This document shows positions 48,004 to 51,974 of a DNA stretch of 64,000 nucleotides, one piece after another (positions within the stretch are counted from its first letter, which is position 1; every line of letters starts with the position of its first letter). This stretch comes from Vulcanimicrobiota bacterium (GTDB lineage: Bacteria; Vulcanimicrobiota; Vulcanimicrobiia; Vulcanimicrobiales; Vulcanimicrobiaceae). The notes beneath the pieces are model-generated. The model made no database searches. It worked only from the letters and a program-made list of their open reading frames with translations, and had not been told where the DNA came from. Location of the stretch: NCBI GenBank assembly GCA_963723515.1, contig CAVRQT010000002.1:480001-544000 (forward strand). The letters run 5' to 3'. Made by a program: the position numbers and the translations under genes.

Positions 48004-49389
48004 GTGACGGAGTTGTTTGCCGGGCGGTGGTCGCTGCGGTACCCGTGGCGAGCGAGCCGCCCTCTTCTTTACGATCCTCGTCGCGCCGCGCGGCGCTCGC
48101 GGTGATCGGTGGTTTCCTGCACGAGACGCTTGGGAATGTCAACAATCGCCGTGGTCGTCGTCGCGAGCGATGGTCTACGTCACGCTTGCGCGCGGGCAGC
48201 TGCTCGGAAGCAGCGTGCTCATCACGCGCACGCACTTTCCGCAGGTCTTTGAAGTCGTCGAGCGCTGCGCATCGCTCCTGCACGTGCCGATGCCGCTGAT
48301 CTTCGTTCGCGACGATATGTTCGTGCCGATCGTCGCCCTCGGTTTCGGCGAACCGTACTCGCTCGTGATCTCCAGCCACTGGCTCGACCACTTTCAAGAG
48401 GATGAGCTGACGTTCATGATCGGCCGCGAGCTCGGCCACGTTGCTGCCGGCCACACGCGGCTGACCTCGCTGCTCAGCGTGAACGGAAGAGAGAATGCGC
48501 TAGTCTCGATCATCTTCGGCGCTTGGCTGCGCCGGACGGAATACACCGCCGATCGCTTGGGTTGCTTTGCTGCGGTTCAGTCGATGCCGCTCGCAACGAG
48601 CGATCGCCGTCGCGACACTTCATCGATTCGCGCGCAACATCGACCTCGAAACCTTTTCTCGCCAAAAAGAAGATATGATCCGGCGATTCGATTTTGCGTC
48701 TCGGCGAGTGGTTTGCCGCGCAACCGTACGCAACGAATCGAATCGCGCAGCTGCGCGAGTTTTTTGCCTCGCAGCTCTACCGTTATTGGGAAGAGCGCTT
48801 GCTCAGCGACCGAGCGTCGTATGCCGCTCTTGGCCCGACGCCACGCTCCGGCGCCGTGCAGGGCGCGGATTGCGCCGGCTTTGGGCGCCGCATCGCGGCG
48901 CTCGCGATCGATCTCGTCCTCGTCGCCGCGCTCTCGCAAGCGATTCCGACGTTCTTCACCGCAAGTGCGCTCAAACGACAGTCACGTCACGGTAAAGATG
49001 ACGCCGCAAGAGATGCATAACGTTGAGAGCTTACGCTCCAACGCCCGTTGAACTGGATCTCGAAAGCGCTCCAGAGCACAAGCGGTACGTTCAGATTTCG
49101 ATATTTCGGTGCTCACCGGAATGCTGTTGAAGATTGCGATCTACAGTTTCATTCTCGTCACGATCGCCGGACAGACGTTCGGCATGATGATTCTTGGCGA
49201 TCAAGGTGACAACCAAACACTTTCGCCGGCCGCCGATTTGGCTTGCGCTCTGGCGCTATATCGGTGGCGATTCCGCTCGGTATCATCTCCTACGTTTTTG
49301 GATCCTTGATGCGCGTGCAACTGATCGACCATCTCTCCGGCACTCGCGTGGTGCGCTTGGAACGCGCCCTGGAACGAACGTCGTCCTAG
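48004..49389 (+). CDS. M48 (HtpX-like) peptidase domain fused to an RDD domain; multiple indels
   Basis: DELTFMIGRELGHVAAGH, WLRRTEYTADR, QPYATNRIAQL; RDD motifs AGFGRRIAALAID, GQTFGMMILG, DHLSGTRVV. Confidence 0.78.
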
Positions 49390-49421: not shown

Positions 49422-50024
49422 TCACTTGTTACGACGCTTGGAGTACTCATCGATACCCCTAGCAAGCAAGAAATAGACCACGATGATCCAGTAAATCGCA
49501 TACGATACAAGCGGCAGAAAGAATGCAAATATCAGAGCGGCCACGCGAACGTAGATGATAACGGTGAGTCGACGGCCGCCTTCTGTTGCGGAAAACGGAA
49601 CCTGCCCGCCATAGGCGTGCGACGCGATCAAGTGGTTAACGAGCGCTTTTCCAGCGAGGTTGGCCAACAAGGGTGTGAACGAATAGAGAACTGCGGCCGA
49701 CGGCAAGTTCGGGTACGTGCCCGCAACGTTCGTGGTGTACGGTATGGACGCGACCATCACTAGGAGGATGGCGTTGTACATCGTCGTCTTATGGTCAATC
49801 ACTTTGACATTGCGGAAGATCGCGCTGTGGAGACGCCAGTAATTCGTGATCACTCCAAAGCTGAGCAGGTACACCAACGCCTTCGGCCATTGCGCGATCA
49901 ACCGATACATCAGCTCTGTGTTGTTTCCCGACGAAACTATCGGTACCGCAAAGTTCAGAATAAGGAGCGTCGCGGCGATGGCGAAGATGCCGTCAGCGTA
50001 AGCCTCGATCCGGTGCTGATTCAC
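49422..50024 (-). CDS. TMEM175 (DUF1211) potassium-channel-like protein
   Basis: RIEAYADGIFAIAATLL, YLLSF, YWRLH, IPYTT; 6 TM helices. Confidence 0.88.
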   Translation of the reverse strand: MNQHRIEAYADGIFAIAATLLILNFAVPIVSSGNNTELMYRLIAQWPKALVYLLSFGVITNYWRLHSAIFRNVKVIDHKTTMYNAILLVMVASIPYTTNVAGTYPNLPSAAVLYSFTPLLANLAGKALVNHLIASHAYGGQVPFSATEGGRRLTVIIYVRVAALIFAFFLPLVSYAIYWIIVVYFLLARGIDEYSKRRNK

Positions 50025-50563
50025 TTCGTAACTTCTATTTGCAGCGCGTTATTGACGCGGTTGAAGTAGTTGAAGAGGCCGATCGTGCAGATGATTTCGA
50101 CGATCTGTCCATCATCGAAGTGGTTCCGTAAACCTTCCCAAACCGATTCCGGCATCGCCCGCGGCTCGCGCGTCATTGCGACAGCTGCCGCAAGCGCCGC
50201 TCGTTCGGCCGCCGAGAAACGCTCGCTGCGCGCGTAGTCCCAGAGTTCGTCGAGCATCGCATCCTCAACGCCGAGACGCCTTGCCAAGGCGCCGTGCGAG
50301 CTCATTCAATAGTCGCAATCGTTCAGCGCGGAAACGAGTACGACGCACAGTTCTTTGAGACGCTGCGGCACGGTGCCACCCTCGGTGACGGCCGCCATGT
50401 GCTCCGCTGCAGTGCGCATGATTTCCGGCCGCGCGGCGAGCGTGCGAAACATGTTTGGGTAGTTGCCGCGCCGTTCGTAAAATTGCTGGAGAACCGCCCG
50501 AGCTTCGGGCGGCGCGGACTGCGGCTCAATGGCGGGCAGCCGCGCCCGTCTGCTGCCGCTCAG
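50021..50563 (-). CDS. AhpD/CMD-family protein with in-frame UGA, putative selenoprotein (CxxU)
   Basis: Two in-frame ORF halves PNMFRTLA..LKEL..VSALNDCDY-TGA-MSSHG..FSAAERAAL..FNYFNRVNNAL; TGA at 50308-50306; start uncertain (CTG 50563 or TTG 50629). Confidence 0.85.
50275..50293 (-). promoter_or_regulatory. Candidate bacterial SECIS hairpin
   Basis: GGCGCCUU-GGC-AAGGCGUC beginning 12 nt after the UGA; G at the first loop position. Confidence 0.6.
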
Positions 50564-50574
50564 AGTGGGCTTCT

Positions 50575-51974
50575 TTATCCTGCTCTGACCCAGCGCCGGA
50601 AGCGCGAGTCGCCTCGCACCGGATCCCAACGCGGATCAAGCGCGTACCACATACTCTCGTTTTTCGGCGGCGCGTGACGCAGGTACGCGAGAGCGCGATC
50701 CCGATTTCCGAGCGCGAGATAGACGAGCGCGATTTGATCGGGCGAAATCTCACGCGGATCGCGGCGAGCGCTTTGCAGTGCTGCGAGCGCGTCGTGCACC
50801 CGCCCGCGCCGCGCATACATCTCAGCCAGCAGAATTTCCGCGTCGGCACGGTGGTGCGCGAAGCGGCCGAGACGTTCAAAGCTCGCGGCCGCGCCCACGT
50901 AGTCGCGCATCTGCTCCTGTGCGAGTCCCTGGATCATGATGCTGTCGAGGTGCGTGCTATTCAGATCGAGCGCCTCACGCATGTAGCGCACGGCATCGCC
51001 GTAACGGCGATCGAAGTAGGCTTCCGTTCCCAGCCACGCGTTCGTCGCCGTCGCCGTCGGATCGAGGGTAATCGCGGCCTCGAGCTGCTCCCTGGACTCC
51101 GCCATGCGTCCTCTCATCAGCAACGATGTGCCGTACCATTCGTGCGCGAGGGCATAGTTGGGATTGAGCGCCAGTGCATGTTTGTACTCGTCATCCGATT
51201 TTGCCAGGCGGTGATCAAAGAGCTCTAAGACCATTGCATAAGAAGTCCGCGCTTCAGGTGAATTAGGATCGAGCCGGAGTGCGTGCAGCGCATTTACGCG
51301 TGCCTTGCGGGAAACATGCTGACACTCCATCGACGCGCAGCTATAGTCTTCGATCATCGAATACGCGTCGGCGAGGCCTGCGTAACCAAGTGCGCTATTT
51401 GGATCGGTCTTTACGACATCCTTAAAATAGCGAACGCTTTTCGCCAGCGCTTCCGAGCTGCGCAAGTTCCAATAATATCTGCCGAGCGCATATTCACGCG
51501 CGCCTTGAGCGCTCAAGCGCGGCGTTGTCACGCCCTGCGAATGGCTCGAACCGGCAGCGATCGTCATCAAGAGCACTGCCGCGGCGACCGCCGTCGGCCA
51601 GCGAAGGGCGCGCCGTGCGACCGGTAGCGGCGTTGCAAAGACGGCTTTAACATCAGCGACGAGACGATAGCCGCGCCTCGGTATCGTTTCAATGCGACAG
51701 GCGGCGTGGTGCGCCCGCATCATCTTGCGCAGCACGTAGATATTCTGAGACAGATTGGATTCTTCAACGTAGCCGTCCGGCCACACAATCTCCATAAGGC
51801 TGCTCTTTGGAAACAATTTCATTGCTGCGCTCTACGAGCGCGAGCAGCGTTTGAACCACTCGCGGCCCCAGCGCGAACCGGCTCACTGCCCGTACCGCAC
51901 GCAGCAACGGCGTAATTTCGAGCTCGAAACCAGTCAAACTCGTACGCGACCGGCAATCTCTCGAGCTGTTCCAT
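50575..51974 (-). CDS. OmpR/CadC-type winged-helix regulator with TM segment and TPR repeats; indels near 51820-51920
   Basis: VAYEFDWFR, LMEIVWPDGYVEESNLSQNIYVLRK, IETIPRRGYRL, TM helix, TPR repeats, LDPRWDPVRGDSRF. Confidence 0.85.

Follow-up and report, generated by a model that had tools for sequence, protein, structure and literature searches.

On the minus strand of a contig from a Vulcanimicrobiota bacterium, two short open reading frames, 50306..50629 (107 aa) and 50021..50305 (94 aa), lie in a common frame with only a TGA (50308-50306) between them. Does this codon end one protein, or does it encode selenocysteine (Sec) inside another? The window that we analysed is a stretch of 64,000 nucleotides (C2:480001-544000) from a genome of 2.11 Mb in 4 contigs, 88% complete (G000). 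With TGA read as U, the translation runs VSALND-C-D-Y-U-MSSH, and the read-through product around the Sec site is ...KELCVVLVSALNDCDY-U-MSSH... The original prediction had taken the two same-frame ORFs, parted by the TGA only, for a recoded Sec gene that gene callers split. The ORF list and the translation agree with that arrangement, and the recoding is backed by the sel genes of the genome, by Cys homologues and by a covarying hairpin, all of which speak for Sec insertion at the level of sequence. The two short ORFs are parts of a single gene, coding for a predicted small redox enzyme, and its internal stop codon is very likely translated as Sec; we put the probability that the UGA is decoded as selenocysteine at about 95% (Table 1). 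An exact look-up of four sequences in the protein collection (the two halves and read-through forms) returned 0/4, which has little weight given the uncertain start codon, and a scan for promoters and terminators at the locus gave results at chance level.

Table 1. Features of the selenoprotein locus in window coordinates, in the order of transcription
Feature	Position	Strand	Remarks
Winged-helix (Trans_reg_C) + TPR gene, upstream	50575..51822	-	conserved neighbour
Candidate non-canonical coupled start, ATA	50576..50578	-	in frame; overlaps the TAA stop of the upstream gene; same ATA/stop overlap in G001
AhpD/CMD-family selenoprotein gene (predicted), ~180 aa	50021..50578	-	stop TGA 50023-50021; 5' end uncertain (ATA 50578 or CTG 50563)
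Glu71, predicted proton relay	50351..50353	-	12 residues N-terminal of Cys83, cf. Glu36/Cys48 of PA0269 (PMC3141380); nearly invariant in alignment A2
Cys83, first residue of CxxU	50315..50317 (TGC)	-	nearly invariant in alignment A2
In-frame UGA, predicted selenocysteine U86	50306..50308	-	residue numbering from CTG 50563
His90, predicted proton relay	50294..50296	-	4 residues past U86, cf. His55/Cys51 of PA0269 (PMC3141380); nearly invariant in alignment A2
Bacterial SECIS hairpin (predicted), GGCGCCUU-GGC-AAGGCGUC	50275..50293	-	8 pairs, G-first 3-nt loop
TMEM175-family (potassium channel) gene, downstream	49422..50024	-	its GTG overlaps the stop of the selenoprotein gene (GTGA)

The read-through protein scores 56.3 bits against PF02627 (cut-off 23) and 97.1 bits against TIGR01926 (cut-off 81.8), and exceeds the cut-off of TIGR00778 as well; its C-terminal half by itself has no Pfam match and falls below the TIGR01926 cut-off. 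E71, C83, Y85, U86 and H90 correspond to Glu36, Cys48, Tyr50, Cys51 and His55 of PA0269 and to their M. tuberculosis equivalents (PMC3141380), and the full set of relay residues is conserved among homologues (alignment A2). The motif residues (E71, C83-D-Y-U86, H90) and the family scores thus place the UGA on the second Cys of the AhpD/CMD motif, as had been proposed. The AlphaFold2 model is all helical (pLDDT 95.9), and the 13 solved structures matched by sequence belong to AhpD-like proteins (2PRR, 2OYO, 6K40 and 2O4D among them). The E-x11-C-x-Y/H-C-x3-H spacing is common to the window protein, PA0269 (2O4D, P. aeruginosa), DR1765 (6K40, D. radiodurans) and M. tuberculosis AhpD, and the all-helical predicted model of the window protein would fit their fold; these three proteins use Cys, whereas the window protein is predicted to use Sec, and identity to them is low.

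The original prediction was right to state that AhpD-like proteins with Sec are already known. A description of AhpD-like selenoproteins with CxxU dates from 2005 (PMC1088965), PMC2398784 gives counts for ocean samples, and the proteins appear under TIGR01926 and PF02627 in a listing of 2026 (PMC13188914) and also in BSepDB (PMC13326102). By its predicted sequence the window gene is a member of this family (TIGR01926/COG2128 'AhpD-like 1'; CMD-like PF02627). Like the known members it passes the TIGR01926 and PF02627 cut-offs, has U at the second Cys and a downstream bSECIS with a G in the loop; unlike them, its host, judged by its nearest named relatives, belongs to a Vulcanimicrobiota (Eremiobacterota) lineage and not to marine metagenomes. 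It is not an AhpD orthologue, with 19.7 bits against TIGR00777 (true AhpD; cut-off 191.95). Two other NCBIfam models, both of AhpD-fold (seleno)proteins, are homologous without including it: NF053654 'YciW-related (seleno)protein' (E 1e-21, 77.5 bits, cut-off 310; E 7.8e-28 for the best A2 member), and NF041238 AhpD_rel_CFYUT (E 5e-10, 39.1 bits, cut-off 175). None of the selenoprotein-specific models of NCBIfam reaches its cut-off with the window protein.

The original prediction had also placed an 8-bp hairpin with a G-first loop 12 nt past the TGA and had proposed to score it with a bSECIS model. The hairpin is indeed found at 50293-50275, and its loop begins 20 nt past the UGA. Published bSECIS criteria (loop of 3-9 nt, stem of 4-16 bp, G in loop positions 1-2, spacing of 16-37 nt, MFE <= -7.5; PMC13188914) were applied through our own filter, not bSECISearch, and the hairpin agrees with them on four counts out of four (3-nt GGC loop, 8 bp, 20 nt, -10.2 kcal/mol). 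Pieces of 28 and 40 nt are predicted to fold into the 8-bp hairpin; in those of 47 and 60 nt the lowest-energy structure is another hairpin, with interruptions, on the same bases. Compared with shuffled sequences, the four pieces have z values of -0.58, +0.15, -1.33 and -2.47, so stability alone is modest, and 1106 of the 15436 open-frame TGAs of the genome (7%) pass the loose bSECIS filter. Because it is weak in a GC-rich genome (60% GC) where so many TGAs pass, we rejected hairpin stability alone as evidence. The exact form (at least 7 pairs, G-first triloop) follows 24 of 59049 TGAs when the register is held to that of the window gene, and 559 of them when any register is allowed. Genome-wide, a scan for motif plus hairpin returned 168 candidates, mostly noise; it found the window gene and SelD, missed the three other UGA genes described below, and is no count of the selenoproteome. 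The actual support for a SECIS element is comparative, drawn from aligned homologous loci.

Searches of 61 relatives, of 301 genomes of the phylum and of a genome collection gave 136 loci; setting aside 19 duplicates, 2 loci without alignment and 1 that does not cover the column left 114, including four distant paralogues at 30-35% identity. The Sec column holds TGA in 80 of these distinct loci, Cys in 26 and other codons in 8. The loci come from Vulcanimicrobiota, Acidobacteriota and Chloroflexota; the nearest named relatives are Vulcanimicrobiota (Eremiobacterota), and farther ones Acidobacteriota and Chloroflexota. The register was taken from the window's own hairpin, and a locus counted as positive with 6/8 pairs or more plus a loop G; by this rule 78/80 TGA loci, 0/26 Cys loci and 0/8 others have the hairpin, counts that are not independent, since the rows are related and rich in Thermoanaerobaculia and the collection search used query-derived patterns. 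Unpublished genomes enter the counts and the trees (G022, G048 and G263 with TGA, G029 with Cys) and the selA count given below (G234); no conclusion rests on them.

The hairpin is conserved by compensatory change. Across 73 distinct TGA rows, 90% of cells are paired and two-sided changes are seen in 7/8 pairs, with a covariation score of 0.549 as compared with 0.159 for shuffled and at most 0.126 for slid alignments. The outermost pair is unpaired in 49/73 TGA rows; this pair is poorly kept and the conserved stem is therefore 7 bp. The 26 Cys rows serve as a control and show no covariation (36% paired, with a score of 0.085 that equals their own shuffles). In 13 close TGA orthologues, synonymous change is 0.18 in stem codons versus 0.50 elsewhere. 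A further 19 orthologues, picked to include all nine flagged with TGA, comprise 8 with TGA, all of them with 8/8 pairs, 9 with Cys and 2 with other codons, the non-TGA loci having at most 4/8 pairs; the hairpin is present in 8/8 TGA versus 0/11 non-TGA loci.

Among full-length proteins of the protein collection, the column is Cys in 120/120 of the matches listed, 45 of which read TxYC. None of the matches listed is more than 68% identical to the query, yet genomic orthologues at 73-89% exist; to judge from these sequences, the UGA forms are evidently absent from the collection as full-length proteins and split by gene callers. The alignment of homologues suggested in the original prediction thus finds, beside the eight other codons, Cys or the same TGA at the column, and the Cys homologues are single full-length proteins rather than paired polypeptides. 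This bears on the reading in which translation truly ends at the TGA and begins anew at the adjoining ATG, the locus making two polypeptides. An AUG does follow the UGA directly in the window and in several relatives, and gene callers list two ORFs; in most TGA loci, however, the next codon is not ATG (AAC, CTG, CTC, ACG and others are found). The cut would moreover fall inside the catalytic helix of the AlphaFold2 model and lose the very residue that is Cys in the full-length matches, and there would be no reason for the hairpin to covary with TGA only. We consider two separate polypeptides very improbable.

Relatives at 63-89% identity, whose genomes were assembled separately, also carry this TGA. 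The original prediction had held that the TGA was unlikely to be an error, the other lesions of the region being indels rather than substitutions; its conclusion stands, and the relatives make that argument unnecessary. The assembly is error-prone, with frame breaks in selB, selD, fusA (L017) and lpd (C2:147872-149267), and there is another in the M48 peptidase region (window 48017-49300), which could speak for an assembly error, a recent nonsense mutation or a decaying Sec system in this strain. Against an error or a pseudogene stand the shared TGA and the mostly synonymous differences of both halves from G001, a genome of the same genus (18/3 and 29/9, synonymous/non-synonymous); the comparative evidence effectively excludes both. 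As for decay of the Sec system, G001 has an unbroken selB frame of 641 codons, and fusA, an essential gene, shows the same kind of break, which points to assembly indels. Taken together, this group of explanations is scarcely credible.

If the UGA encodes Sec, the host should decode it, and a search for selA, selB, selC and selD had been proposed. All four are present: selA (506.6 bits), selB (244.4 bits, over its cut-off, with two indels near the 5' end in this assembly, C2:432826-434673), selD (357.9 bits, with a UGA of its own and, in the assembly, its frame break near the 3' end) and selC, the tRNA-Sec (69.4 bits). The selB indels are probably assembly errors, given the frame breaks in selD, fusA and lpd and the unbroken selB of G001. 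Since selA occurs in 76/80 genomes tested, including all 22 with the UGA form, its presence does not tell UGA forms from Cys forms. One could also suppose that UGA is translated as Trp or Cys, either across the whole genome or through leaky read-through. Nothing specific favours this; TGA ends 197/529 long ORFs, TGG is in normal use, and in the standard scan the tRNA-Sec is the only tRNA with a TCA anticodon (a low-threshold scan allowing introns gave noise), which leaves this the least probable of all the explanations considered here.

By family searches, four more genes of the genome were found to hold a UGA and a G-loop hairpin. SelD (L019, C2:781096, minus strand) has its UGA in a CAG-U motif; its 8-bp hairpin, 33 nt downstream and with a GUC loop, is built like that of the window gene. 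Directly behind selD lies a second AhpD-like gene (L186, C2:779839, minus strand) with GCPF-UGA and a hairpin whose loop contains a G; its protein is 24% identical to that of the window, and its best model is NF053654 (78.7 bits, under the cut-off). The others are a BCP/PrxQ-like peroxiredoxin (L191, C2:30901, minus strand), which has a TPG-UGA motif with a G-loop hairpin and may be a redox partner, and a formate-dehydrogenase-like molybdopterin enzyme (L188, C3:1002362, plus strand) with an in-frame UGA, a 7-bp hairpin and a GUU loop. A third CMD/AhpD-like gene (L173/L184, C2:364282-364533) has an ordinary CxxC.

Where does the gene begin? Relatives start with M-[P/A]-R-L-P, and at the corresponding place our genome has no ATG, GTG or TTG, position 50563 being CTG; G001 likewise has none of the three at the homologous position. 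A far TTG at 50629 exists in our genome only. Between our genome and G001, the 30 codons ahead of the first internal ATG differ by 10 synonymous and 4 non-synonymous changes. Six other close relatives from the own family were compared; in five of them the TPR gene lies alongside, and an ATG, GTG or TTG coincides with its stop or follows it closely. With no standard start at the homologous position and an in-frame ATA at the upstream stop (Table 1), AUA or CUG is a possible start codon, as judged from sequence.

The TPR gene adjoins in 54/55 loci of the own family's clade, and the link was not found in more distant UGA loci. The TMEM175 neighbour occurs, among the loci tested, in our genome and G001 only and is not conserved. 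No redox partner is encoded among the neighbours, and no ahpC adjoins.

How might the enzyme be made and work? By established bacterial Sec biology, SelB-GTP-Sec-tRNA(Sec) would insert Sec on binding the loop of the hairpin, which lies 20 nt past the UGA; without insertion, the ribosome would stop after about 85 residues. By AhpD chemistry, an E71-H90-water relay would activate U86, whose selenolate would attack a peroxide or disulfide, with C83 resolving to a selenenyl-sulfide. In M. tuberculosis AhpD the second Cys is the attacking residue. Re-reduction would proceed via lipoylated E2/Lpd/NADH; a lipoamide dehydrogenase gene is present in the genome, and a lipoamide-linked electron path has been described for AhpD (PMC8945050, PMC12028322, PMC10460364). 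By analogy, the protein is probably a thiol/selenol oxidoreductase in peroxide defence, in which U86 would attack, C83 resolve and re-reduction be lipoamide-linked, and its substrates are likely to be peroxides or oxidised peroxiredoxins. PA0269 is only a weak peroxidase, and no substrate site is known for the family (PMC3141380), which leaves room for a specific substrate or a regulatory role. We therefore weighed a reading in which the UGA still encodes Sec and the enzyme acts on a specific small molecule, as Bmp8 does, or as a redox switch for the TPR regulator. The 13 solved relatives include the AhpD-fold debrominase Bmp8 (6OHI, E 1.6e-11), the TPR regulator is a near-constant neighbour in the own clade, and the persistence of Cxx[S/A/L] and TxxC orthologues fits relaxed or changed chemistry. 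The best-matching solved structures are nevertheless peroxidase-related AhpD-like proteins, the full relay is conserved, and the absence of the TPR link from more distant UGA loci argues against a switch; a small-molecule or switch function is the less likely reading, and we favour the oxidoreductase.

The 55 loci of the own clade divide into 20 with TGA, 25 with Cys and 10 with Ser, Ala or Leu (L031, L034, L038, L041, L044, L147, L154, L155, L180 and L183): in genomes that decode Sec, the syntenic orthologue of the Vulcanimicrobiota family has CxxU, CxxC and Cxx[S/A/L] versions. The ten Ser/Ala/Leu loci imply that the Sec/Cys residue is not essential in every lineage; nine of them were placed on a tree and form one clade, and two of the ten carry TCA, one base from TGA. 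Cys forms (S-[T/A]-P-Y-C, TxYC) in which both the first Cys and the hairpin have been lost are found in L030, L140, L060 and the 45 database matches mentioned above. One genome with such a form (G052) has kept selA, selB and selC. G255 has two UGA-type copies of different subgroups (L141, L169), the second on a 3-kb contig that may be mis-binned.

A quick tree of 67 selected rows, with the motif and the SECIS-coded columns left out, has at least 7 state changes, and in each of the two families the earliest branches are UGA forms. Monophyly of the 32 Vulcanimicrobiota rows without UGA, a group defined by codon after a first tree had been seen, was rejected (p-AU 2.5e-85). We infer the direction of change from a root placed on UGA-bearing outgroups, which come from a biased search; the identical hairpin register of all UGA forms favours ancestral Sec with repeated loss. 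On these sequences we lean towards a history in which Sec and the SECIS were ancestral in Vulcanimicrobiota and were replaced several times, by Cys (one clade also losing the first Cys: [T/A]xxC) and by Ser/Ala/Leu, in Sec-decoding genomes, with a stop-overlapping AUA start in the genus. An early survey (PMC1794560) reports 15 Sec-to-Cys events in four families, a rare change, and none of them in AhpD-like proteins.

A literature search found no report joining Eremiobacterota with selenocysteine or selenoprotein. In the BSepDB supplement (PMC13326102), at least two 'Eremiobacter' genomes stand under other phyla, and BSepDB may already list such genes. Our results correct the annotation from two ORFs to one predicted selenoprotein gene and indicate the use of Sec in Vulcanimicrobiota. 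They imply no new mechanism. With U, C and S/A/L orthologues in the same syntenic place, one could test directly how much an AhpD-like enzyme gains from Sec.
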